Of a stretch of 64,000 bases of DNA, positions 10 to 30,421 are shown in pieces. Numbering within the stretch: position 1 is the stretch's first letter; each line of letters begins with the position of its first letter. This stretch comes from Escherichia phage JN02. The notes under the pieces were generated by a model. The model worked only from the letters and a program-made list of their open reading frames with translations. It did no database searches and was not told the DNA's origin. The DNA is taken from sequence record MT782071.1. The stretch is one strand, 5' to 3'. The position numbers were made by a program, and so were the translations under genes.

Positions 10-2223
10 TTATTTGGCCGCTTCCACGGCCTTCATGAATTTAACGATTTGAGCGACCTGTTCTTTAGAAAGAGTACCACGTCGTCCCATGTATTCTGAC
101 ACAATATGATAATTGGTTTCAAATTCAATAACCATTTTATCATCGTTATCGTAAGCATTATCTTTAAGCTTATCGAAAATTTTAGCACACAATTCTAACT
201 TCCTGTTCAGGTCTGTATTAGTAGCACCTGCGAATCGATTCCATCCCCAGCGATTATTTACTGTTGAGAGTTTTGCAAAATCTTTACTGATTTCTTTGTT
301 CTTAGAGCTAAAATACTTACTAAGGAAGTTGAGCTCTTCATTACGAGTAATATGATTCAAATAAGGCTGTGCTCTACGACTTGGTGATACATACTCATCA
401 TAATCTACTTTATCGATTAGCATAATATAGTCGTTAATTGATTTTTCAAACAAACATTCTACTTCACCAAGTTTACGAACTTTCTTAGCAATCTGTGGGC
501 GAACTACAGTGAACTCTTTAATACCTGACAAATCAGCAATACGGGTCAAGAAACCAGAATCATAGTTCAACCAACCTTTATCTGCGTCAAGACATTCAGC
601 ATTAGAACGATTACGAACTATAGCATAACCTTGGATTTCATCAGCTTCACTCGCCGGAATAAAGAGATCTTCTGATACCCAAACATCGTTTTCGTTCTTA
701 AAGAACCGATGAGCACTCGGGGATTTAGGACGAGGCCCATTAGAACGAGTCTTGACTTCAATCCATGGCTTAACGATTTGTAAAAGCTCTGAAGTCTTGT
801 ACATGTTAATGTTATCGCCATCAAAGATAACTTTAAGGCGTTCCAGAAGTTTCATTGCATTTTCGTCTGTAGGGTCAACGAATAGTACGCTTTTACCAAA
901 ACCGCGTGGAACTTTACCGGTTAATTTAACCTCGTCTTTAGACATTTCAATTGAATTAAGAGCTCGCATTAATGGAACGCGTCCCTTAACGTCGTCAATA
1001 ACAATTTCAACGTTTTTAATGTTAATGCCAATCAGGCTGTTAATTGAAATGGTTGATGATGAGCTACCACTTTCACGAATACGACGAAGACGAGGGGATT
1101 CAACGATATCGTATACGATGCCAAGATTACACCACTCAGGTCCCATTTTAAAACGTTTGTACAACTCAGAATAAGTTAGCTGTTCTTTAGAGTATTTCAG
1201 TGATTCAATATTAGACCCAGCCTTTTCCATGTATTTGCGAGCGGTATAGCCAAGAGAATCAATTTCACGGAACACATGGCGTGGGTATTTACAATCAATC
1301 CATTTCTTAGAATCTTCAGCGAACAATTTAGCATCGATTTCTGCAACGCGTTTATGGATATTTGCTACTGTACGTTTATCAAATGACAGTGCTTCGCGAG
1401 ACGGGGCCACATCTAGTTCACCCATAGGGAATTTAATATAAGCTGTAGTGCATCGCGTCATCATCCATGTTTGTTCTTTAATAACACTTCCGATTGGATA
1501 TACAATACCACCATAAACAGCCATGATATTACCACGTTCACCCCATGGAGCTTCCTTGGCCAAATATACATCGTCAAATTCAGGAAAGTATTTGATATCT
1601 TTAACACCACGAACTTCTGCAATGTCACCTAGAGGACGCATAACATATGCAATTTCAGATGCGAACTTTTCAAAATCTTCTGGGTTAACAGGCACAACTA
1701 CTTCAACGCCGGTCCGGTCATCAGGACCCATCTTATCTACGAAGGTTGGCTTAATCTGTGGACCACTGTCATCTTGGTAGATTACGTAACCACGAACTTC
1801 ACCGTTGTGATAAGACGTAAGGTTAAACGTATCAGTATATGCTAATGGAGCTTTAGAGCCGAGTCCGAATCCACCAATGAAATCGTTACTCGATGTTTTA
1901 GTTGAAGCAAAATATGAGTTATAGATTCCTGGCTCTTCGTCATTACCTCGAATGGTGAAATCACTCATACCAGGACCAAAGTCTCGAACTACAAAACGTG
2001 GGTCTAAACGACCTGGAGCCTGAACAATAAACTTATCAGTGCAACCATTAAGAATTTGTCCATCGATACAGTTTGTGATTAATTCACGTACACAAGCCAA
2101 TTCTTTGTTTGTATAAAGGTCATTAGACAAAATCTTATAAACTTTGCTATTGCCTTGAATAGTAAATGCTGTGCTCTTACCGCCTGAACCAATAATCGTT
2201 TCTTTAGCCGTTTCAATAATCAT
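10..2223 (-). CDS. rIIA: rIIA protein (GHKL-type ATPase N-terminus)
   Basis: 737-aa ORF; N-terminus MIIETAKETIIGSGGKS...ELITNCIDGQ resembles T4 rIIA as recalled; sits at the end of the conserved rIIA-39-dexA-dda block. Confidence 0.85.
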   Translation of the reverse strand: MIIETAKETIIGSGGKSTAFTIQGNSKVYKILSNDLYTNKELACVRELITNCIDGQILNGCTDKFIVQAPGRLDPRFVVRDFGPGMSDFTIRGNDEEPGIYNSYFASTKTSSNDFIGGFGLGSKAPLAYTDTFNLTSYHNGEVRGYVIYQDDSGPQIKPTFVDKMGPDDRTGVEVVVPVNPEDFEKFASEIAYVMRPLGDIAEVRGVKDIKYFPEFDDVYLAKEAPWGERGNIMAVYGGIVYPIGSVIKEQTWMMTRCTTAYIKFPMGELDVAPSREALSFDKRTVANIHKRVAEIDAKLFAEDSKKWIDCKYPRHVFREIDSLGYTARKYMEKAGSNIESLKYSKEQLTYSELYKRFKMGPEWCNLGIVYDIVESPRLRRIRESGSSSSTISINSLIGINIKNVEIVIDDVKGRVPLMRALNSIEMSKDEVKLTGKVPRGFGKSVLFVDPTDENAMKLLERLKVIFDGDNINMYKTSELLQIVKPWIEVKTRSNGPRPKSPSAHRFFKNENDVWVSEDLFIPASEADEIQGYAIVRNRSNAECLDADKGWLNYDSGFLTRIADLSGIKEFTVVRPQIAKKVRKLGEVECLFEKSINDYIMLIDKVDYDEYVSPSRRAQPYLNHITRNEELNFLSKYFSSKNKEISKDFAKLSTVNNRWGWNRFAGATNTDLNRKLELCAKIFDKLKDNAYDNDDKMVIEFETNYHIVSEYMGRRGTLSKEQVAQIVKFMKAVEAAK

Positions 2224-2235
2224 ATTTTTCTCTCA

Positions 2236-2436
2236 TCACAAGTTACGTTTAAAAATTTCTGCTACTTCAAGAAGTTCTTCTTTAGTAGCTGTATCGGTTT
2301 GTATTTTATATCGAATTTCTTTAAAGCGTTCTTTAAAGGACTCTGCTGACTCGATATCAAAAAATCTTTGGATAAGCCGGAATTCCCGGAGCACTGCTTT
2401 ATCAAAAAGTTCCAAGTCCACGTTATATGTTCTCAT
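2236..2436 (-). CDS. hypothetical small protein (rIIA.1 position)
   Basis: 66-aa ORF tightly packed between rIIA and the next gene; no recognisable motif. Confidence 0.35.
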   Translation of the reverse strand: MRTYNVDLELFDKAVLREFRLIQRFFDIESAESFKERFKEIRYKIQTDTATKEELLEVAEIFKRNL

Positions 2437-2528
2437 AATATTCTCTTCAGTAGATTCCTAGGGCACTATTACTAAAGACCATATAATCTATCATCTTGTG
2501 TGTAATAGTGCCTCAGGCTATTCAGGAT

Positions 2529-3629
2529 TTACGCTGTGAAGATTTTATCCCACATCGCAACAACTGCATCTCGATTATACTTCTTCCATACTGCTTCAGC
2601 ACGTTTAACTCGAGCTTCGTACGTGTCAGTGAATTCTAATACAGCTTTTGTGTAAAGCGCAACTACTTCTTTCTTAGGAGTAGAGGAATCAATTTCTACA
2701 CGCACAGTATCTGGGTCGTATTCGAATGTCGCATGAGGATAATCCTTAAAAACTAACTGGATTACAGGGACACCTTTAGAGATGGCTTCAATAGAACTAT
2801 TCTCTACCGTACCTGTGTCAGGACACGTATTAATAAGTGCTTTAGCTGTTTTAAGACGTTCCATGATTTCACTGTGTGGAGCATCAATAATAACAGGATA
2901 TTTAGCTGGTGGTGCCCATTTACTAGGACAGTATCCTACACCATTTTCGCCTAGTGCTTTAATCGCTTCAAGAGCAACATCAGTGCGACGCATTTTAGTG
3001 TCATAACGTTGTGCACTAATAATCAAATCAGTCGCCGGAAGAACTTCAGGTTTTTCAGTCAAACAAATAACCGGATAATCTTCGGCTTCAAACAACGGAT
3101 TTGCTCGCCAATAATCATAATCAATTTTGTCAGTCAGACCTGAAGTCATATAACAATATTTGCGTTCAAATTCACGGAAGGCTTTAGTGGGAGCATAACT
3201 CTTACCACCATTCTTATGAATTTGAATAGTCTGATCCCAAATTTGAACAATGCCACGAGATACCGGTTCAAATGGTGTTGCCATAAAATTCTTATGAACT
3301 TTAGAGAGACCTGCGTCTTTAATTGCCTGAACGGTTAGTTTAGTCGGTTCCATAGTAACAACAAAATCGTATTCATGGATGCCGGCTAGTTCAACAATCT
3401 TACGAGCCATAGTATAACTCATACCTAGACTGAATTTAGTCAGATGTCCAACAGGGTGGTGTGTAACTTTCCAGTCACCAAACATGTCATTATCAAAACC
3501 GATATAATCAATATCAGCACCAATAGAAACTAAATATTTCAACACATTTAAATGTACTGCTTCAAGGCCACCTTGTACACGGTCAGGATTAAATGGGACT
3601 GCGCGAGATGGGATAAACATAACTTTCAT
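2529..3629 (-). CDS. GT-B fold glycosyltransferase (GT4-like), candidate DNA sugar transferase
   Basis: 366 aa; N-terminal MKVMFIPS...GGLE and C-terminal TGTVENSSIEAISKGVPVI resemble GT4 donor-binding motifs; occupies the T4 gene 60/mobA position. Confidence 0.6.
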   Translation of the reverse strand: MKVMFIPSRAVPFNPDRVQGGLEAVHLNVLKYLVSIGADIDYIGFDNDMFGDWKVTHHPVGHLTKFSLGMSYTMARKIVELAGIHEYDFVVTMEPTKLTVQAIKDAGLSKVHKNFMATPFEPVSRGIVQIWDQTIQIHKNGGKSYAPTKAFREFERKYCYMTSGLTDKIDYDYWRANPLFEAEDYPVICLTEKPEVLPATDLIISAQRYDTKMRRTDVALEAIKALGENGVGYCPSKWAPPAKYPVIIDAPHSEIMERLKTAKALINTCPDTGTVENSSIEAISKGVPVIQLVFKDYPHATFEYDPDTVRVEIDSSTPKKEVVALYTKAVLEFTDTYEARVKRAEAVWKKYNRDAVVAMWDKIFTA

Positions 3630-3655: not shown

Positions 3656-3673
3656 AAGCTCCCAAAGGAGCTT
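3656..3673 (-). terminator. stem-loop overlapping gene 39 stop, followed by U-rich tract on minus strand
   Basis: plus-strand agctcc-caaa-ggagct; minus-strand reads hairpin then TCATTTTAATTTT. Confidence 0.35.
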
Positions 3674-5489
3674 AGGACATCCATTCTTTACGAAGTTCTG
3701 AATCATCACCCAACAACATTTCAAAGAGTTCTTTCCAGTTTTCAGGAAGTTTAACTACGTCGTACACAGGGTTCTGAATCATTTCACGATATTCTGACTT
3801 TTCAAGGGAGCCTAATCCCTTGATGTATCGAATACTATGCTTAGGCAGTGTATCTTTAGCTTCTTCATACTCAGCTACAGTATAAAACCATTTTTGAGTT
3901 TTGCCAATTTGTGCAATAATTACAGGCGTTTTAACAAAGCGAATACGTCCTTGTTCAAACAATTCAGGCCAATTACTAAAGAAAGCAAGCAAAGCCGGGT
4001 AAATACTTCCAAGACCGTCATGATCGGCATCGGTCATAATTGCAATATTACGATAGTTCGTATTCTCTGCCTTTTCACCAAGAATAAGACCTGTGATAGC
4101 ACAGATATCAAAGAGCTCTTTGTTCTTCATCATATCAGCATATGACATACCCCAGCTATTCATCACCTTACCACGTAATGGGAATCCACCGTGTAGTTCA
4201 CGGTCACGAACATCAATGAGATAACCAATTGCAGAATCACCTTCTGTTAAGAATAATGTCGTATCTGCATCTTTACCGCATTGGTTAGCTTTAATGTGCT
4301 TATGAACCTTAGCTTTAGTTGCCTTTTTAGCTGCTTTAGTTTCTGCAGCCTTTTCTGCTGCCAATTTACGAGCTAATGCTGCTTCAACAATAGGCATAAT
4401 CAAGGCTTCGTTTTTAAGAAGGGCCTGAGCAATTTTCTTAGCATCTAATTGGATATGATTACGAATATCACCATACGTTGACGTTAAACGTTCTTTAGTC
4501 TGAGAATCAAAACGCATGTTGCTCATGTCTCTAATAAACATCAACATTGTGAGACATTCTTTAACACGAGCTTTAGTGACTTCAATACCCTTATATTTCT
4601 TTTTAATACCGGGCAAAAGATGTTCGCAGATATCATCCATTACACATTCAACATGATGACCACCATTTTTAGTATGGATGTTATTCACGTAAGTTAAATG
4701 ACGGAAGCCATCTGGTGATGTTGTGAATGCTATAGAGACTTTATCATTTTCTTGAATGATGTTATCTTCACCAAATTGTTTAGCAAATCGTTTAAAATTA
4801 CCATCGACCTTTTTACCATTAAATGTGAACTTGATATCAGGATAAACGACTGCCAATGTTTGAAGTCGGTCTAAAGTAATATCTAAATAAATTTGAGATA
4901 AATTATGCTCTTCAAACGAAGAGAAATCAGGAGTGAAGATTACTTTGGTGCCTTTACCTTTAGATTTCTTAGAAGACCATGATTTGTTTTCCATTCCATT
5001 TGAACAGTTAACAGTGATTTCATTTTCGCCATCTGACGTGATGCCTGTAAACAACGTAGAGAAGATATTAGTTAAACTACTCCCGACGCCGTTCATACCA
5101 CCAGTCTTGCGTTCAGAGTCATCACCAAAGTTACCACCGGCCTTTGGAATAGTCCAGGCTGCCACAGGACCAGGAATTTGTTCACCCGTTTGGTCGGTAA
5201 CTAAACCTTGTGGAATACCACGTCCGTTATCTTCCACCGAAACTTGATTATTTTTAATTTGAACATCAATTTTATTTGCAAACTTAAATGATGTACGAAT
5301 AGCTTCATCAACCGAGTTGTCAATAATCTCATCGATTAATTTAACCAGACCAGGAACATATTCAACTTGTTGATATTTACCAAACAAAAAACGCTCGTGG
5401 GCTTCTTTAGCAGAAGAACCAATATACATACCACTACGTTTCTTAATATGTTCTACATCTGACAATACCTTAATTTCATTTTTAATCAT
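3672..5489 (-). CDS. 39: DNA topoisomerase II large subunit, uninterrupted gp39+gp60 fusion
   Basis: 605 aa; GyrB-like N-terminus (MYIGSS...NSVDEA) and C-terminal Toprim (AIMTDADHDGLGSIYP) that in T4 lies in separate gene 60; continuous reading frame. Confidence 0.9.
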   Translation of the reverse strand: MIKNEIKVLSDVEHIKKRSGMYIGSSAKEAHERFLFGKYQQVEYVPGLVKLIDEIIDNSVDEAIRTSFKFANKIDVQIKNNQVSVEDNGRGIPQGLVTDQTGEQIPGPVAAWTIPKAGGNFGDDSERKTGGMNGVGSSLTNIFSTLFTGITSDGENEITVNCSNGMENKSWSSKKSKGKGTKVIFTPDFSSFEEHNLSQIYLDITLDRLQTLAVVYPDIKFTFNGKKVDGNFKRFAKQFGEDNIIQENDKVSIAFTTSPDGFRHLTYVNNIHTKNGGHHVECVMDDICEHLLPGIKKKYKGIEVTKARVKECLTMLMFIRDMSNMRFDSQTKERLTSTYGDIRNHIQLDAKKIAQALLKNEALIMPIVEAALARKLAAEKAAETKAAKKATKAKVHKHIKANQCGKDADTTLFLTEGDSAIGYLIDVRDRELHGGFPLRGKVMNSWGMSYADMMKNKELFDICAITGLILGEKAENTNYRNIAIMTDADHDGLGSIYPALLAFFSNWPELFEQGRIRFVKTPVIIAQIGKTQKWFYTVAEYEEAKDTLPKHSIRYIKGLGSLEKSEYREMIQNPVYDVVKLPENWKELFEMLLGDDSELRKEWMS

Positions 5490-5503: not shown

Positions 5504-5536
5504 ATGAAGGTATTCTATCATCCGAAATCTAAAGCA
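5504..5536 (-). promoter_or_regulatory. MotA-box middle promoter candidate upstream of gene 39
   Basis: minus strand reads TGCTTTA, 12 nt, TAGAAT about 15 nt before the RBS/ATG of gene 39; matches T4 middle promoter architecture. Confidence 0.45.
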
Positions 5537-5538
5537 AA

Positions 5539-5554
5539 AAGGGCCGAAGCCCTT
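5539..5554 (-). terminator. rho-independent terminator after goF-like gene
   Basis: minus strand: GGGC-TTCG-GCCC stem-loop followed by TTTTTGCTTT; overlaps the stop codon. Confidence 0.5.
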
Positions 5555-7441: not shown

Positions 7442-7861
7442 TTATGCGAAAGCAGCCGGGCTATATTTTTTAATTTGGAATTCAGGAACTACCATGAACT
7501 GTCCAGCGAAAACGATGTTATAAAGCTTAACACCATCTTCTACCCAACGGTCGCTAATAAATCCAGCGATTTGCTTAGTTTTCCACGGCGTTCCATCAGT
7601 TGCCGCAGCAATAGTGAATTCATGGTCTTTTTCAACAGAAACTGATCTGCATAGTCCCCATTTGAACGCTTTTTCTTCTGGTTCAATGAATTGGCTTGAG
7701 ACGTAGCCAATATTACCATTAGCATCACGAACTTTAACTTGGTTACGGCCAAAAACCGGATCACTCACAGAAAGAACTTCAACCAACTTCCCGGCAACTT
7801 TAGAGCGAGAAGCAACAGATACATATACGTAATCACCTGTAGAGAGATTTACAATATTCAT
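7442..7861 (-). CDS. hypothetical protein, member of tandem paralog triplet
   Basis: 139 aa; shares C-terminal motif DRWVEDGVKLYNIVFAGQFMVV with the two upstream ORFs. Confidence 0.45.
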   Translation of the reverse strand: MNIVNLSTGDYVYVSVASRSKVAGKLVEVLSVSDPVFGRNQVKVRDANGNIGYVSSQFIEPEEKAFKWGLCRSVSVEKDHEFTIAAATDGTPWKTKQIAGFISDRWVEDGVKLYNIVFAGQFMVVPEFQIKKYSPAAFA

Positions 7862-7870
7862 AATAATTCC

Positions 7871-8398
7871 TTAAGCTTTACGAGGAGACACATAGCGAGT
7901 GATTTCAGATTCTTTAACAACTCGGAAGTCACCTAAGAATACGATATTGTATAACTTTTCACCATCTTCAACCCATTGGTCACTAATGAAGCCACACATA
8001 ATATCAGTTTTGCTTGGATATCCGTATTCGTCGATGTAATCAAATTCTTTATCGGTCTGGAATTCAACGCCTTTGCAAAGGGCCCATTTAAACTGTGTAG
8101 TAGGCTCAACGATATCGTTTGAAGCAAATTGGACTCGTATATGTTTTTCAAGGAATTTAGGACTTACGTAAGCATACTGGGCATCTTGTCCGCCAAAACT
8201 AGGAATGATTCGAACTTTAACTTCTTTAATACGTCCCATGCCATTTGTGCGAAGTCCGACAACTTCAACCAGACGACCTGCGGCTTTAGACCGGGATGCA
8301 GTTGATACACGTTTAATTTCACCAATAGTAATCATAATTTTTCTCTCTTTGTTTAAGTTGAATTCATTATACTCCATCCATCCTTGGATGTACAACAT
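7871..8398 (-). CDS. hypothetical protein, member of tandem paralog triplet
   Basis: 175 aa; motif DQWVEDGEKLYNIVFLGDFRVV. Confidence 0.45.
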   Translation of the reverse strand: MLYIQGWMEYNEFNLNKERKIMITIGEIKRVSTASRSKAAGRLVEVVGLRTNGMGRIKEVKVRIIPSFGGQDAQYAYVSPKFLEKHIRVQFASNDIVEPTTQFKWALCKGVEFQTDKEFDYIDEYGYPSKTDIMCGFISDQWVEDGEKLYNIVFLGDFRVVKESEITRYVSPRKA

Positions 8399-8934
8399 TA
8401 ATTTAGAATATTAACTACTGCACTACGTGGAACCACACTAAAGTCACCGGCATGAACAACGTTCAGAAGTTCAACCCCGTCTTCAATCCACTGGTCAGTT
8501 ACCCAGCCACTTACCGGTCCAGCGAATGGTCGACGAATTGAAACTGCTTTACACAACAAGTCTGTAGGCTCAATAGGCTTAATCAGAGTACCGTACATAC
8601 AAGCGATATCCATATCAAAGTGGAGACCATCTTTAACAGGTGCTTCTTCAATCAACAGTTCAAAGTCGGTGCTTGGAAGGGCGGTAGTAGAAATTGTACC
8701 GTATGAATTTTTAATTTCTAAGAATAACCAAGGGCCTTCAACTTGTTTGATGAAGTTAACAATAGTGAAACTATTACCTTGAGTGGCACCTAAAATTTCA
8801 CAAAACTTTTCATAAGCTCGCACTGAAGCACCGTACCAGTTGATTTGTTTTTCGTCTTTCAGGATGTAAGTAGCCGTAGTATTGATATTCATAATGTTTT
8901 CCTGTTTGGTTAAGATAGAAAGATTATACTCCAA
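8398..8934 (-). CDS. hypothetical protein, member of tandem paralog triplet
   Basis: 178 aa; motif DQWIEDGVELLNVVHAGDFSVV. Confidence 0.45.
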   Translation of the reverse strand: MEYNLSILTKQENIMNINTTATYILKDEKQINWYGASVRAYEKFCEILGATQGNSFTIVNFIKQVEGPWLFLEIKNSYGTISTTALPSTDFELLIEEAPVKDGLHFDMDIACMYGTLIKPIEPTDLLCKAVSIRRPFAGPVSGWVTDQWIEDGVELLNVVHAGDFSVVPRSAVVNILN

Positions 8935-23873: not shown

Positions 23874-24422
23874 TTAACGAGCCCATTTGATAATTTCTGT
23901 AATCAAATTATTACGTTCGCTTGCATTAAATCCTATAACTTTGTTAGCACCATCATGATTAAGTAATTGATATGTTTGGATTTTGTTATGAATTGCAAAC
24001 TCTTCAAAATATGAAATGACTGTATTAAAACCGAATGAAGACAAAGTAATAAGGTCGTCTTCAAAACTTTCAGTCATTTCGTTACGTGTTAAAATAATTG
24101 TGAACACATCATGGGTTTGGCAAAGACGAACATAATCCTGTTCATAAACGTCAAGAACAGAGTCCGCATCTTGTCGAATACGTCCATAAACCCAGTTACT
24201 AATATATCCACGGTCTAACAGATAAATCTTAGTAGGGTCTAAATAATTCAACATCGTTTCGAAACAGCCAACTTCATTTCGAGACTTAACATCGAAACGT
24301 CCATCAACCGTTCGTTTAGGGAAATCAATCTTTACATATCTTTCACTAATTTCCATTATGTCATTAATGAAAGTTGTTTTACCAGCATTATCTGGGCCAT
24401 CTACTAAAATAATTTTAGCCAT
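23874..24422 (-). CDS. P-loop kinase, thymidylate-kinase-like
   Basis: 182 aa; Walker A GPDNAGKTT at N-terminus and LLDRGYIS resembling the TMPK DR(Y) motif; occupies part of the T4 beta-gt locus. Confidence 0.5.
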   Translation of the reverse strand: MAKIILVDGPDNAGKTTFINDIMEISERYVKIDFPKRTVDGRFDVKSRNEVGCFETMLNYLDPTKIYLLDRGYISNWVYGRIRQDADSVLDVYEQDYVRLCQTHDVFTIILTRNEMTESFEDDLITLSSFGFNTVISYFEEFAIHNKIQTYQLLNHDGANKVIGFNASERNNLITEIIKWAR

Positions 24423-24423
24423 T

Positions 24424-25323
24424 TTATTCCTCGATTACGACATCTTCGTATTTAGGTATATTATACGGTGAAGAAATTAAAGCATTAAAGTAGATGAACT
24501 CGCCAAGACCTGGATGGAATACTTCTTCAGGATTTTCGAAATATTGAATCTTCGGCCGTCCTTTAAGAATTTGATAGTACTCAGTTTTAGTTGGTTTAAA
24601 AATTCGAATCAGCGCTTCTTCAGGATACTTATTTCTATCGAAGCTATTATTTGGATCGGTTACATAAAGCGGTTGACCTAATTGAATTGCACATTCAACC
24701 ACTTGTTCAAAACGATAGCACGGGTCACTAATTCGAAATGGATGAAAAATACCATCTAGATGAATAGGAGCCAAATCACCTACAAGACGCTGCATAATGG
24801 AAGGACGTATAACTTTCTGGGTTACGATAATCTTATTACCATCTGCACCTGCGTTAACCAGCACTTCCTTTTGACGTTCATTCAACACAGTAGTTTGAAG
24901 TGAACGATTAACCGACAACATATCAGTTTTTAAGAATTCGTCAATATAAAAACGTGGTTTATTAGGGTCTGCAGTGATATTGAAATTGAATTCTACGTCA
25001 AAAGTGCCGTCATATCCAGTGATATCTGTGATTAGAAAATCACAATCATAATAATCAATTAATGAATCAACCACAAATTCATTTTCAGACCAGAAATATT
25101 TACGAGTGTTATACGCGTTATCTTTATACCATAATGGAACAAACTTAAATTCTGGGAAAAGACGTTCACATTCTTTAATATCAGATGCATTACGTGGATA
25201 TGTAATCACATCACCCGGATTAGCACGGTGCAAATGAAGTTGGAAGTTGCCATCCTTAAGGATAGCATACTCTCCAGTTTCATAAGACCGCATACTCAAG
25301 ATAGGTACGCGGAAAATAGCCAT
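24424..25323 (-). CDS. hypothetical protein at beta-gt locus (candidate DNA-modifying transferase)
   Basis: 299 aa, no motif I recognise; immediately downstream of gene 42 where T4 has beta-glucosyltransferase. Confidence 0.35.
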   Translation of the reverse strand: MAIFRVPILSMRSYETGEYAILKDGNFQLHLHRANPGDVITYPRNASDIKECERLFPEFKFVPLWYKDNAYNTRKYFWSENEFVVDSLIDYYDCDFLITDITGYDGTFDVEFNFNITADPNKPRFYIDEFLKTDMLSVNRSLQTTVLNERQKEVLVNAGADGNKIIVTQKVIRPSIMQRLVGDLAPIHLDGIFHPFRISDPCYRFEQVVECAIQLGQPLYVTDPNNSFDRNKYPEEALIRIFKPTKTEYYQILKGRPKIQYFENPEEVFHPGLGEFIYFNALISSPYNIPKYEDVVIEE

Positions 25324-26039
25324 TAGTCAAGGAATCCTTTAACATAATCAAAATCACGTTCAAACACATGGGCACTTACCATGGTATGAGTATAATCACC
25401 AACTTCTACACCACATTCGTTAGCGATATAATGAAGTAATTTTCCTTGGAGATAAAAATCCAACTGCATAACAACAGCACAGTTCTGAGAACGCATATGA
25501 CAGTGGGTATAAAGCTTACCATCGCGAATATAATAAGTCGCCGAGTCAGTACATGGATATTCAAGCGTTTCGTCCGAATCAAGCAAAGCCTGATCAGAAC
25601 TTTCTAGAATTTGGAACACAACTCTTCGAGAGTTAGGTTTATCTTTAAGTTCTTTTAGAAGAGCTGGTAATTGGGCCGCAATGCGAGGACCATAGAAAGT
25701 GTTGAAGTTCGCCGGCAAAACATCTGATTTTGGTTTAGAAATAAATTTAGCAACGTTAGGATATGCCTTAAAGGCTTCTTCTGCATCAGTTCCGCCAGAA
25801 ATCATAAATTTCCAGAAATCTTCAGCATATTCATAAGAGATGCGGTTAATACGTGGGTCGGTCATTTTGAATGATGATGGAGTGTCAACAACTACTGTCA
25901 TAGACCCAATTTCATTACAACGTCCAATACGAGAATCAGTTACGAATTCCGGGTTTTCTAAAATCTCACGATTGACTGCTTTAAATGCGGATTGAAAATC
26001 TGCGGCTTTAATATATTTCATTGTGTTATGTTTTCCCAT
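25323..26039 (-). CDS. 42: dCMP hydroxymethylase (thymidylate synthase family)
   Basis: 238 aa; YPCTDSATYYIRDGK...MRSQN aligns with the T4 gp42 catalytic-Cys region as recalled. Confidence 0.8.
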   Translation of the reverse strand: MGKHNTMKYIKAADFQSAFKAVNREILENPEFVTDSRIGRCNEIGSMTVVVDTPSSFKMTDPRINRISYEYAEDFWKFMISGGTDAEEAFKAYPNVAKFISKPKSDVLPANFNTFYGPRIAAQLPALLKELKDKPNSRRVVFQILESSDQALLDSDETLEYPCTDSATYYIRDGKLYTHCHMRSQNCAVVMQLDFYLQGKLLHYIANECGVEVGDYTHTMVSAHVFERDFDYVKGFLD

Positions 26040-26080
26040 GTTTACCTCAATACAGTTATTATATACTCAATTCATAAAGC

Positions 26081-26320
26081 TTATTTGAATTTCTTAGCGA
26101 TGTTGATATAACGTAGAGCTTCGGCATCAATACTTCCAAGGACACTATGAAGGAATGCGTCGGCATAGTATTCTAGTTGAACAGGTTCTTTAATCGCTTT
26201 AGCCGCTTTAGTTTCAAACAGGCCCATAAGGGCCTTTTTAAGAATTTGTTCGTTAGTGTTCAGTTTAATAGTCAAAATCTCTTCGTTAAGTTTATAATTA
26301 AAACTTTTTCTAGAAATCAT
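26081..26320 (-). CDS. hypothetical small protein
   Basis: 79 aa; not hydrophobic, so not an Imm homolog. Confidence 0.35.
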   Translation of the reverse strand: MISRKSFNYKLNEEILTIKLNTNEQILKKALMGLFETKAAKAIKEPVQLEYYADAFLHSVLGSIDAEALRYINIAKKFK

Positions 26321-27477
26321 TCCGGGTACCTCAAAGCGTCATCAGAGTTAGTTATATCAATAATAGATATGGAGTTTTCTGCTAACCCGTTTTTAGATAA
26401 TTGACGTTTATAATACCTTTCACAATATGTACACGTTGACCCACAGATTTCATTAGCACAATCGAAATCTGGATGTCTGAACCACCTTTTTTCTAAAAAA
26501 CCATCCAACAAAGAGGTTTCAATATTTACCGTATGTGAAAACTCAGTCTCATTTTCAAGAGTGAAAATAGTCTCTAAAGGCTTCCACAATTCCAACAAAT
26601 TACCTTCAAACTTTTCAGAAGCGTATGCTTCAAGAACTTTCAAAATGTAGTCGGTGCTACCTGTACGTCCTGAAACTTTGAATTGAGTGATACCAATATC
26701 ATTATAAAGTTTCAAATCTTGTGGACGAACAAAACGAGTTCTCAACCAGTTAAATGGGTCTGTATCACGAGCTTTAATACAGTGCTGCATAGGATATCCA
26801 TTTAAGGATTTAGCATCATCAGCTGTAACATCAGTACTATGGAAAATATAGCAAGAGTCACGATAGCTACAATGTGTTGTATACCCTTTACCAGCATTAG
26901 AACAGAACTCATTTACAAGAACTTCAAATATTATATTGTTCTTATTGCAAAACTCTGCTGCACGCTTCAGGAAAGAAACTGAACGGTTCTTATGAATTCC
27001 ACAGCAGACCTTTTTGATATTATACTGGTCATGTAAGTATTTGATTTGAGTTACAGCATCGACATGTAAAATTGTTGAAACTTCAATCTCAATGTCTTTA
27101 TTGACTTCACGAACAATTTCCATAACAACAGGGTTAGCGATAGTAATACGCCATACGCCTATTGACCAAAGATACTGAACATAGTCCTGAATAGCTTTCT
27201 TCTTCCACTCAACTAGTTCTCTTTTTGAACCAGGATTTATCGTGTTGAGTGTATAGTTAAAGCAAATACCTAATTCGTTACAACGTTTAACGTAATCTTC
27301 TAACATCTTTTTGTCAACGTCAGGAAGCCTAAAATCAGGTCTGGCTGCTACAAAAGCCATTTCTCTTGTAGAGCCATATACTTCGTTTATCAAGCTATTA
27401 GGATAAGTTTTATTGAGCTCTACGATTTTATCAAGAAGAGCTAAATCAAAATTCGTTCCGATTTTAAAAGTATTCAT
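26317..27477 (-). CDS. Cys-rich hypothetical protein in sugar cassette
   Basis: 386 aa with clustered Cys (KVCCGIH, EFCSNAG...HCSYRDSC, C-terminal CANEICGSTCTYC); no confident family. Confidence 0.35.
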   Translation of the reverse strand: MNTFKIGTNFDLALLDKIVELNKTYPNSLINEVYGSTREMAFVAARPDFRLPDVDKKMLEDYVKRCNELGICFNYTLNTINPGSKRELVEWKKKAIQDYVQYLWSIGVWRITIANPVVMEIVREVNKDIEIEVSTILHVDAVTQIKYLHDQYNIKKVCCGIHKNRSVSFLKRAAEFCNKNNIIFEVLVNEFCSNAGKGYTTHCSYRDSCYIFHSTDVTADDAKSLNGYPMQHCIKARDTDPFNWLRTRFVRPQDLKLYNDIGITQFKVSGRTGSTDYILKVLEAYASEKFEGNLLELWKPLETIFTLENETEFSHTVNIETSLLDGFLEKRWFRHPDFDCANEICGSTCTYCERYYKRQLSKNGLAENSISIIDITNSDDALRYPE

Positions 27478-27532
27478 TTTTTTGCATCTCGCGTTAATTG
27501 TGCGATGGTTTTTGCAGGTCTTACTTAAATTA

Positions 27533-27934
27533 TTATAGATTCGGTTTATATGATTTAAATGTTTCGAATTCGCCTTTATTCATAAGAGCTTTGAATTCGT
27601 CAGGACGCATAGCTTTGTCGTCGATAATCCAATCATATACTGGTTTATGTGTTAGCAAATTATGGTACTTCAAGCCAATGTTTGCCAAGTTCTGAATAAG
27701 ACTTGGGAGAATGTCAATTGCTATACGACCAGGACCTACTGACTTCATACCGCGAGCAGTGTAAAGCGTTATGGTATGCCCTGCATCATACAGGGCATTA
27801 ATGGCAGATACCATTTCGACGTCTGGTTTGAAGTTCACGTAATCACGATTGTTATTCCACTCTGTTATACAATCATCGACATCAAAACAAAGATTAAGCA
27901 TGTTTTCTACACGGTGCATTAGATTCGTTCCCAT
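27533..27934 (-). CDS. HAD-superfamily phosphatase (small)
   Basis: 133 aa; motif I FDVDDCIT, T/S motif TLYTAR, Lys HKP, motif IV IIDDK; start probably at an internal Met. Confidence 0.6.
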   Translation of the reverse strand: MGTNLMHRVENMLNLCFDVDDCITEWNNNRDYVNFKPDVEMVSAINALYDAGHTITLYTARGMKSVGPGRIAIDILPSLIQNLANIGLKYHNLLTHKPVYDWIIDDKAMRPDEFKALMNKGEFETFKSYKPNL

Positions 27935-29604
27935 TGATGAGTGATATCGCCACCGATTGGACGATAGGAAACACCAGTTTCTTTATCAGTTAGTACCCAT
28001 TTACCAGGATTTTTTGTAATCAGAGTAGCCGTTACAGGTTCTGCTACGTCATAACTAATAGAGCCGTCTTGAAGTACACGGCCCATGTTACGTAATTGCT
28101 TAGTCAGAAGTTCCATACCTTTATAATATGCGGCTACCGCTTTAAGTGGATTATTCTTGAAATAACCACCTAATGCAATCCAGATAATTGCTACAGCCAA
28201 ATGATGATACTCGTTAAATGAACTCATCTTTCCATATTTGTAAATTAATGGATTGATGTTAATAGTCACATTACAAGTTGTTTCGTCAATAGTAAACTGT
28301 CCCCAGGTCGGATTAGCGTTGAATTCATCATAACCTGAAACAGCATAAAGCACTTTAGCTTCATCGTACAATTTTGGCCCGTAAATCTTGGTTTCACCAA
28401 AATATCCACGAGGGTCGATAAACTTGACTTCGCCGTTATCAGTAATCATAGTATTACTGAAGTTCGGGTCACCATGAATAACAGAGTACTGTCCCTGAGA
28501 ACGGTTATGATAACGAATAAGGTGTTCTAAAGCTTGTTTCAACATTGGCTTCAGACGCCCAATCTTAGTGTAGTTCACATGTGTGATTTTACCAAATGAA
28601 TCAATCAATGGTTGAATACTTTCACAACGATCAATAACTTTCGTATAGAATTCTTTAGTGAAATCACGACGAACAGTTTCAGGACTTACAAAATAAGTGT
28701 CTGTGCTGAATTTCAGTGCATCTAAAATTGCATCAACAATTTGCGGACGAGCAAGACTCGATTTGGATTTAATATATTCAAATGCCGGCTTACCTTTAAT
28801 GCGTTCCATTTCAAAGTTATTTTCATTAACAGAAACTAACTGAGGAACTGAATCTGATTTCACTTTAAGATACCATGAAATCTCATCTTTCTGAAGAGCT
28901 CGGCCCTGTTCGGTTAATGCGAATTTAGTTACAGTTTCTTCACCAATTTCAACTGCATTAAAACTACGATTAAGTTCACGAACTTCATGAGCTTTTTCAA
29001 GTTTAGGCATATCACCTAAATCAATTAGATTCATAAGCTCTGATTTATTGAATGCGCCGCTGTAAAGGAATTCTACGAAATCACGTCCTTTGCAGTATTC
29101 ATGAATTTCCTCATCAGTAGAACCCATATAGAATTCCCAGTCTTTGAACTGATAAATTCCTACAACATTACCACCTGTTGAACCTACGTTAGTGATATTT
29201 TCACCGTCGAAATTATATCGACATTCGTCACCCTTAACATAGATTGCGTTAACATTCCAAGACCATGAACCAAAATCAGGAATAATATCACACCAGTTAA
29301 CAATTACATTATGGCCGTCTAAATCTTTATGTAATTTAGCAAGAGCATAAGCAGAACCATACGCTTCATCAACTGTACGAATAGTCACATTGAACCCTTC
29401 TTGCTCACAATAAGCTCGAACAGTTTCAGCAAATTTTGAATGAACTACTACAATAATTTCATCTGCGCCAAGGTCAGAATAAATTGTATACAAATTGCTC
29501 AGAATAGTGTCTTGTTTATAGTTAACAAGCACCTTAGGAATATGATGCGTTATTGGATACAAACGAGTTGCCAGTCCAGCACCAAGAATAACAGCTTTTT
29601 TCAT
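27919..29604 (-). CDS. bifunctional sugar-1-phosphate nucleotidyltransferase / anomeric sugar kinase
   Basis: 561 aa; N-terminal AVILGAGLATRL (G-x-G-T-R nucleotidyltransferase motif); C-terminal VIHGDPNFSNTMI...FIDP (APH/choline-kinase-type catalytic loop). Confidence 0.65.
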   Translation of the reverse strand: MKKAVILGAGLATRLYPITHHIPKVLVNYKQDTILSNLYTIYSDLGADEIIVVVHSKFAETVRAYCEQEGFNVTIRTVDEAYGSAYALAKLHKDLDGHNVIVNWCDIIPDFGSWSWNVNAIYVKGDECRYNFDGENITNVGSTGGNVVGIYQFKDWEFYMGSTDEEIHEYCKGRDFVEFLYSGAFNKSELMNLIDLGDMPKLEKAHEVRELNRSFNAVEIGEETVTKFALTEQGRALQKDEISWYLKVKSDSVPQLVSVNENNFEMERIKGKPAFEYIKSKSSLARPQIVDAILDALKFSTDTYFVSPETVRRDFTKEFYTKVIDRCESIQPLIDSFGKITHVNYTKIGRLKPMLKQALEHLIRYHNRSQGQYSVIHGDPNFSNTMITDNGEVKFIDPRGYFGETKIYGPKLYDEAKVLYAVSGYDEFNANPTWGQFTIDETTCNVTININPLIYKYGKMSSFNEYHHLAVAIIWIALGGYFKNNPLKAVAAYYKGMELLTKQLRNMGRVLQDGSISYDVAEPVTATLITKNPGKWVLTDKETGVSYRPIGGDITHQWERI

Positions 29605-29645
29605 GTTGTGGTCCTCATTGGTAAGTAGGAGTATTGTACACTATT

Positions 29646-29789
29646 CTAGTTAAAGCATTCATACTTTGCTTGTAGTCCAATCATAATCCATCCGATTATG
29701 AGAGTCGGAATCATTACTGGAGCCGTTAAGCTCCAGTAGATAGTCATGACAAGCATCAATAGTAAAAGTCCTATTGTTATTGCTTTCAT
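29646..29789 (-). CDS. small hydrophobic peptide (47 aa), below the ORF-track cutoff
   Basis: MKAITIGLLLLMLVMTIYWSLTAPVMIPTLIIGWIMIGLQ...; ATG overlaps the upstream stop (TAATG). Confidence 0.35.
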   Translation of the reverse strand: MKAITIGLLLLMLVMTIYWSLTAPVMIPTLIIGWIMIGLQAKYECFN

Positions 29790-30421
29790 TATTCGCCTCG
29801 TAACATGGCACCTAGTGCACCACCAGGGTGGAACTTAAGGAAGTCATTAGAGGTAAATCCACGTTCAGACGAAAGGTTGATAGCGAACGTATCGATAAGC
29901 GCTAACAACAATGTAGTAGACATTGTCGGAGCTAAAGAGTTCTCGTCAACTTCTACCGCGATGCCTGTACAGAAAGAGTAATCAAAAAGGGCTTCATTTT
30001 CTTGCGGAATGTCAGGGTTACAATGTAACAGAATCTGTTTAACCTGAGGACGAATCATACGAAGATGTTTAGCAACACCTATCATTTCTTCGGTCTTACC
30101 AGAACGACTAATATGAATCAACACATCATTAGGCGCAATGAATCCTGCATCGCCGTGAGAATAATGCCCGGTGTTCAAGTACATACTCGGGATACCGAGT
30201 GAAGCAAATGTCTCAGAAGCTTTAGTTGCAATATTAGCATTCTTACCAACACCTGTAATAATTACTCGGCTTTCATAATTGCTAAGTCCTGGGCGTCGAA
30301 GAGTTTCTAGAATAGCATTATAACGAGCAGGGTTTTGACTAATTACTTTGGCCATAGCGGCCAAAGAAGAAGCTTGTTTTACGATTGCGTCAATAGCGAT
30401 AGTAATAGGAGTAGTTTTCAT
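29789..30421 (-). CDS. SIS-domain sugar-phosphate isomerase, arabinose-5-phosphate isomerase-like
   Basis: 210 aa; VIITGVGKNANIATKAS, HGDAGFI, ISRSGKTEE and APTMSTT...FLKFHPGGALG match KdsD/GutQ/KpsF SIS signatures. Confidence 0.7.
   Translation of the reverse strand: MKTTPITIAIDAIVKQASSLAAMAKVISQNPARYNAILETLRRPGLSNYESRVIITGVGKNANIATKASETFASLGIPSMYLNTGHYSHGDAGFIAPNDVLIHISRSGKTEEMIGVAKHLRMIRPQVKQILLHCNPDIPQENEALFDYSFCTGIAVEVDENSLAPTMSTTLLLALIDTFAINLSSERGFTSNDFLKFHPGGALGAMLRGE

Follow-up and report, generated by a model that had tools for sequence, protein, structure and literature searches.

The window analysed here, a stretch of 64,000 nucleotides from Escherichia phage JN02 (sequence record MT782071.1), carries near its start a gene for a 366-aa glycosyltransferase in the following setting:

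2529..3629, minus strand: gene for the 366-aa glycosyltransferase of GT-B (GT4-like) type, with an ATG start
10..2223, minus strand: rIIA, downstream of the glycosyltransferase gene in the direction of transcription
2236..2436, minus strand: rIIA.1 (Pfam T4_RIIA1, E 2e-30), also downstream of the glycosyltransferase gene
3672..5489, minus strand: gene 39, encoding the topoisomerase II large subunit (605 aa), upstream of the glycosyltransferase gene

The 366-aa open reading frame (ORF) described in the initial annotation is present exactly at 2529..3629, on the minus strand, and no competing long ORF was found in this interval. Gene 39, whose product shows GyrB, HATPase and Toprim domains, exists in JN02 in its full-length, unsplit 39+60 form, with the glycosyltransferase gene lying directly between it and rIIA.1. 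In T4, by contrast, 60, 60.1 and mobA occupy the same interval, and the earlier placement of the gene in the T4 gene 60/mobA slot is thus borne out by T4 gene order. The GC content of the gene is ordinary in comparison with its neighbours. A 1.5-kb query over the locus retrieved 163 phage records at a nucleotide identity of at least 90%, nearly all of them Escherichia or Shigella Mosigvirus (RB69-like) phages, and the window is 95-97% identical to RB69 DNA over its first 34 kb, which makes it a Mosigvirus genome. Elsewhere on the minus strand (7442-8934), three consecutive ORFs of 139, 175 and 178 aa share a conserved C-terminal motif, ...ISDRWVEDG.KLYN(I/V)VF.G.F.VV..., and match a run of motB/motB.1-like paralogues annotated in RB69. 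In Shigella phage JK45 (NC_054940.1 1923-4723), the glycosyltransferase locus itself bears a tandem duplication of about 503 bp, giving the order full glycosyltransferase gene, 92-nt spacer, a 136-aa ORF with a match to the transferase's C-terminal portion, and the spacer again; this duplication could be genuine or an artefact of assembly.

The gene had also been assigned its own terminator-flanked slot. Indeed, hairpins are found on both of its sides, and a promoter-like site lies farther upstream:

3656..3673, minus strand: small hairpin (AAGCTCC-TTTG-GGAGCTT) with a T-rich tail, from a terminator-pattern scan
2448..2520, minus strand: extended stem-loop in the 92-nt spacer between the stop codon of the glycosyltransferase gene and the start codon of rIIA.1
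5512..5538, minus strand: T4-type middle (MotA-dependent) promoter-like site, TTTGCTTTA-N12-TAGAAT, from a pattern search

This assignment is right only in part. The upstream element, with a 7-bp stem that overlaps the gene 39 stop codon just ahead of the glycosyltransferase start, has a stability indistinguishable from that of shuffled sequence (z -0.87); Bas46 and HY126 keep its stem with a varying loop, and it may be terminator-like or, alternatively, an mRNA-stabilising element. The downstream stem-loop is far from random (minimum free energy -28 kcal/mol, z -4.29, none of 200 shuffles as stable) and is likewise conserved in Bas46 and HY126, but it has no T-tract. This hairpin could be an undescribed regulatory RNA element; an Rfam search with both flanking hairpins returned no match. 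The promoter-like site is located just upstream of gene 39, adjoining a bidirectional GC-rich hairpin at 5539-5554, and is the probable source of a transcript covering gene 39 and the glycosyltransferase gene. As sigma-70, MotA and late promoter patterns were all absent from the minus strand between these two genes, the glycosyltransferase gene seems to share a transcript and not to be an autonomous unit. The simplest inference would be that it is transcribed along with the topoisomerase gene around the time of replication, probably in the early or middle period.

No profile HMM of Pfam or NCBIfam matched the 366-aa protein at E<=1, which places it outside GT4/Glycos_transf_1 as defined by sequence models (PF00534, PF13439, PF13692 and related). 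Two distant members of its family gave only sub-threshold matches to the GT4-conflict model PF20706 (E 0.003-0.07), and when PDB sequences were searched with the family profile, 9iqz was the only glycosyltransferase to be found. The glycosyltransferase call therefore had to rest on structure. PHROG 8302, which carries the label "unknown function", matches the protein with an E value of 1.5e-221. In a PDB sequence search, a single full-length match at 98-99% identity was obtained, 9iqz/9ir0, released on 2025-07-16 and described as "phage HY126 glycosyltransferase" and as the same protein "with UDP". The 9ir0 crystal thus supports UDP binding, its HY126 protein being 99% identical to that of JN02. 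In addition, an AlphaFold model based on a 13-sequence family alignment (pLDDT 91.8, pTM 0.88) replaced a poor earlier model from six sequences (pLDDT 63.9, residues 109-188 unmodelled). The protein comprises two Rossmann-like beta/alpha/beta domains, with the nucleotide-sugar located in the C-terminal one, as in GT-B enzymes.

The conserved residues of the family appear to fit a GT4 donor-site pattern, with equivalence to the GT4 signature residues judged by place in the predicted secondary structure rather than by residue-level structural alignment. A G20-G21 loop after strand 1 and R208-x5-R214, where the C-terminal domain begins, show little or no variation, as do E276 and E281 on an acidic helix, although the latter form an E-x4-E and not the canonical GT4 E-x7-E. 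Structure comparison returned PimA, BshA, WaaG, sucrose-phosphate synthase and BGluT as the closest folds, at identities of 10-14%. These are bacterial retaining GT4 enzymes, from which the phage protein differs in its E-x4-E and in its proposed acceptor, a DNA-borne sugar. Structure shows that "GT-B, GT4-like" is right at the level of the fold, whereas formal GT4 membership by sequence does not hold.

The family is small. Of 5.8 billion protein clusters, a word-indexed search yielded only five that belong to it, an exhaustive profile search of 1.84 billion representative proteins yielded 11, and no sequence bridge to cellular glycosyltransferase families could be built. Every member with genomic context stems from a T4-like phage, the contigs of the distant members being too short to show linkage to a sugar cassette. 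One 35%-identical member of 394 aa, on the T4-like JGI metagenome contig Ga0489998_000752 (3040-4224), adjoins a DNA ligase and a phage DsbA-like gene, which gives the family a third genomic location in addition to the arabinose cassette and the slot between rIIA and 39.

At 98.6% identity, the JN02 protein is the orthologue of RB69 ORF003c (RB69p003, gp3), and further orthologues are Bas46 bas46_0103 and the HY126 glycosyltransferase. It differs from its HY126, RB69 and Bas46 counterparts by only 5-7 substitutions (M49T and T191N among them), none of which falls at a family-invariant position. The HY126 GenBank translation (PP658200.1, 1744-2844) reads L288-G289, unlike PDB 9iqz, JN02 and every family member, which have an invariant P288-V289; either the genome record may be wrong here or the construct that was cloned may differ. 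Contrary to the novelty that the initial annotation implied, the enzyme is already known: Thomas et al. 2018 picked ORF003c as the arabinosyl-hydroxymethylcytosine (hmC) transferase by HMM/HHpred similarity to T4 alpha-gt (PMC6024577), the Bas46 record labels bas46_0103 a "putative hmC-arabinosyltransferase", and a crystal structure (2025) and a pathway model (2026) followed. In the literature outside He et al. 2026 and Mahler et al. 2025, we found no report of direct enzymatic activity of RB69 gp3 or of the JN02 protein. The "Aat" of Mahler et al. 2025 is presumably the orthologue of the 366-aa glycosyltransferase gene. As relayed in the part of PMC13216743 that cites Mahler et al. 2025, deletion of the arabinosyltransferase "Aat" sensitised Bas46 to a defence system.

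The chemistry of RB69-type DNA has been revised since the gene was proposed. RB69 DNA was first reported to contain arabinosyl-hydroxymethylcytosine (PMC6024577), but NMR and LC-MS subsequently identified beta-D-Araf-(1-3)-alpha-D-Araf on 5-hydroxycytosine (5hoC; PMC13326640), and the same picture holds for the Mosigvirus NP (PMC13390438). RB69 gp48 is a 5-hydroxy-dCMP (5hodCMP) synthase with activity shown in vivo (PMC13326640), and JN02 has a ThyA-like gene whose product is 98.3% identical to gp48. The hmC-DNA acceptor named in the initial annotation is therefore outdated, RB69-type DNA carrying arabinose on 5-hydroxycytosine (PMC13326640, PMC13390438). In JN02, the ThyA-like gene belongs to a complete RB69-type cassette at 23874..30421, between uvsX and the DNA polymerase gene, which encodes a nucleotide kinase, a 299-aa glycosyltransferase and ThyA-like, U32-like, HAD-like phosphatase, NTP-transferase/kinase and SIS-domain isomerase proteins at 95-98% identity to RB69 gp45-gp55:

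24424..25323, minus strand: 299-aa cassette glycosyltransferase, orthologue of RB69 gp46:47 and DLP3 gp79
25323..26039, minus strand: ThyA-like 5-hydroxy-dCMP synthase (Pfam Thymidylat_synt, E 5.5e-15; 98.3% identical to RB69 gp48)
26317..30421, minus strand: UDP-arabinofuranose supply genes (Pfam Peptidase_U32, NTP_transferase plus kinase-like, and SIS matches)
27919-29604, minus strand: NTP-transferase/kinase of 561 aa, a single intact ORF

The ThyA-like product would make the base that is later arabinosylated. The supply genes encode the U32-like protein, the HAD-like phosphatase, an AfhE-like bifunctional NTP-transferase/kinase and a SIS-domain arabinose-5-phosphate isomerase, with products 95-98% identical to RB69 gp50, gp51 and gp55; the UDP-arabinofuranose (UDP-Araf) pathway has been described for HY126 AfhE/AfhF and for RB69 (PMC13326640). 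The 299-aa transferase is 46% identical to DLP3 gp79, matches RB69 p047 plus p046 end to end, and is the proposed first (alpha) arabinosyltransferase, making the acceptor for the 366-aa enzyme (PMC13326640). Thus, as expected for a genome bearing a member of an arabinose-extending family, JN02 has a 5hodCMP synthase, a UDP-Araf pathway and a proposed first arabinosyltransferase. In the RB69 reference record, the cassette transferase is split into p046/p047 and the NTP-transferase/kinase into p052/p053. Both are intact in JN02, and this fits the published attribution of the RB69 splits to errors in sequencing.

The 366-aa gene lies about 20 kb from this cassette and is, as had been claimed, unlinked to it in JN02. 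It is also, as suggested, a second candidate transferase separate from that of the cassette: BLASTP detected no similarity between the 366-aa and 299-aa proteins, which are hence not redundant paralogues. BLASTP and tblastn searches with T4 alpha-gt and beta-gt against the 366-aa protein and the whole window, including both syntenic T4 positions, gave only matches with E>1, and by sequence the protein belongs to neither of these glucosyltransferase families (GT72/GT63). Its likeness to T4 alpha-gt (GT72, PDB 1y6f/1xv5) is confined to the fold, with no detectable sequence similarity. Moreover, alpha-gt occupies a different genomic slot and transfers glucose to the hydroxymethyl group of hmC, whereas the 366-aa enzyme is proposed to transfer arabinofuranose to a sugar hydroxyl.

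For RB69, it has been proposed that gp46:47 adds the first, alpha-linked arabinose and gp3 the second (PMC13326640; PMC13390438). A tblastn survey of 50,697 phage records agrees with this division of labour. The 299-aa cassette transferase occurs in 348 records from many genera, including phages of Escherichia, Klebsiella, Serratia, Enterobacter, Proteus, Yersinia, Edwardsiella, Pectobacterium, Shewanella and Acinetobacter, while the 366-aa family is found in only 211, with one copy in Mosigviruses and two places each in 55 Acinetobacter phage records. Within Mosigvirus, the two transferases occur at a ratio of about 1:1 (155 and 153 records at an identity of at least 95%). Copy number of the 366-aa family follows sugar number: Thanatos has no copy and mono-arabinosylated DNA, RB69, Bas46/47 and NP have one copy and di-arabinosylated DNA, and DLP3 has two copies and tri-arabinosylated DNA (sugar numbers from PMC13326640, PMC12923530 and PMC13390438). 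JS98 (Dhakavirus) carries the cassette transferase but no member of the 366-aa family. Its rIIA.1-gene 39 slot (NC_010105.1 2437-3024) consists of 588 bp with several stable hairpins and no long ORF, and no remnant of the glycosyltransferase gene was found in the JS98 and T4 slots.

The JN02 protein is homologous over its full length to gp76 and gp77 of Acinetobacter phage DLP3, which are designated beta-arabinosyltransferases 2/3, with 40% identity to gp76 and 43% to gp77, and thereby belongs to the RB69 gp3/DLP3 gp76-77 family (PHROG 8302). In DLP3, the two genes stand in tandem inside the arabinosylation cassette, beside the kinase, the first transferase and the 5hodCMP synthase, a linkage that the Mosigvirus gene lacks. 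Together and in the presence of UDP-Araf, gp76 and gp77 convert RB69 DNA to a tri-arabinosyl form in vitro; they are inactive on bare 5hoC DNA, and each is inactive alone (PMC13326640). These two family members use UDP-Araf to extend arabinosylated 5hoC in DNA (PMC13326640). The DLP3 arrangement nevertheless differs from that in JN02, with two in-cassette copies that are needed together and a trisaccharide product, as opposed to one copy outside the cassette. As the identity between gp76 and gp77 (57.5%) exceeds that of either to the 366-aa protein (only 40-43%), the Acinetobacter duplication followed the split between the two lineages, and RB69 gp3 would be a co-orthologue of both rather than of gp77 specifically. 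Since neither DLP3 paralogue works by itself, the notion of a single-copy enzyme acting alone is an assumption.

Based on these results, we consider it highly probable that the 366-aa protein is the accessory second DNA arabinofuranosyltransferase of Mosigvirus (RB69 gp3/ORF003c). We infer from the distribution of the family that it adds sugar number two, and the suggestion in the initial annotation that it "adds a further sugar" agrees with both the distribution and the published RB69 gp3 proposal (PMC13326640, PMC13390438). By analogy with the DLP3 paralogues, its acceptor would be DNA and its donor UDP-Araf. In the proposed mechanism, a soluble enzyme of two Rossmann domains, with GT-B, GT4-like architecture, would bind UDP-arabinofuranose made by the phage's own cassette and act on replicated phage DNA whose 5hoC already bears one alpha-D-arabinofuranose from the 299-aa cassette transferase. 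Addition of a second arabinofuranose, presumably in beta-1,3 linkage, would give rise to mixed mono- and di-arabinosylated DNA as seen in RB69, Bas46/47 and NP, and the bulkier modification would shield the DNA from host nucleases.

The other role that the initial annotation had allowed, glycosylation of the base itself, would have the 366-aa enzyme place the first arabinose directly on the 5-hydroxy group (formerly 5-hydroxymethyl) of cytosine in DNA. The 2018 proposal for ORF003c, made from similarity to alpha-gt (PMC6024577), and the annotation in the Bas46 record both point in this direction, and activity on 5hoC DNA has yet to be shown for the 299-aa cassette transferase (PMC13326640). 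However, the family is absent from most cassette-carrying genera (Klebsiella, Serratia, Enterobacter, Proteus, Dhakavirus and Shewanella), Thanatos achieves mono-arabinosylation without it, the JS98 slot is an ORF-less gap with no gene remnant, and the DLP3 paralogues extend arabinosylated DNA while being inactive on bare 5hoC DNA (PMC13326640). We therefore regard a primary role on the base as very unlikely. The joint requirement for gp76 and gp77 (PMC13326640) raises a different concern, namely that the protein needs a partner or a complex, for example the cassette transferase or the replisome clamp, and might itself act as a scaffold or specificity subunit. T4 alpha-gt is reported to interact with gp45 (reference list of PMC6024577), which would be in keeping with such an arrangement. 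On the other hand, the signature residues for nucleotide-sugar binding are all conserved and the HY126 crystal contains UDP, which renders a catalytically dead scaffold unlikely, and Mosigviruses make the disaccharide with a single copy; we give a partner-dependent role little credence.

One might also suspect that the enzyme modifies something besides DNA (for instance a glycan of the host envelope, a protein of phage or host origin, or a free nucleotide still awaiting incorporation), because the closest folds are GT4 enzymes acting on lipids, small molecules and polysaccharides (PimA, BshA, WaaG and sucrose-phosphate synthase) and because the gene is unlinked to the cassette in JN02. In addition, PMC13326640 leaves unsettled whether the first sugar goes onto the nucleotide or onto DNA. 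Yet homologues reside within the DNA-modification cassettes of 55 Acinetobacter phage records and have in vitro activity on DNA (PMC13326640), the family occurs in T4-like phages alone, with only 11 clusters among 1.84 billion representative proteins, and its copy number tracks the number of DNA-linked sugars. A non-DNA acceptor thus appears extremely improbable, and addition of a second arabinose to DNA remains the reading that we favour.

For this second arabinose, the stereochemistry deserves attention. The linkage in the product is beta (PMC13326640). The nearest structural relatives of the 366-aa protein are all retaining enzymes, and the two facts can be reconciled only if UDP-D-Araf is donated as its beta (1,2-cis) anomer. 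Decaprenyl-phospho-beta-D-Araf in mycobacteria may provide an analogy for such a beta donor. We put forward only tentatively, as an unlikely combination, that the 366-aa protein may be a retaining GT4-like enzyme that uses a beta UDP-D-Araf donor to form a beta-(1-3) linkage on DNA, in which case the 299-aa transferase would be inverting.

The JN02 result is a confirmation of a known gene, fold and proposed role rather than a discovery. If direct proof for a single-copy enzyme is still missing, JN02 would offer an intact, well-modelled enzyme with which to settle the stereochemistry of polyarabinosylation. Knowing which gene adds the second sugar is useful for phage engineering, for the choice of therapeutic phages and for preparing defined modified DNA in vitro. 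DNA arabinosylation enables RB69-like phages to evade restriction enzymes and some CRISPR-Cas systems, as well as the glycosylases directed against glucosylated T4 DNA, and which defences remain effective depends on the number of sugars.
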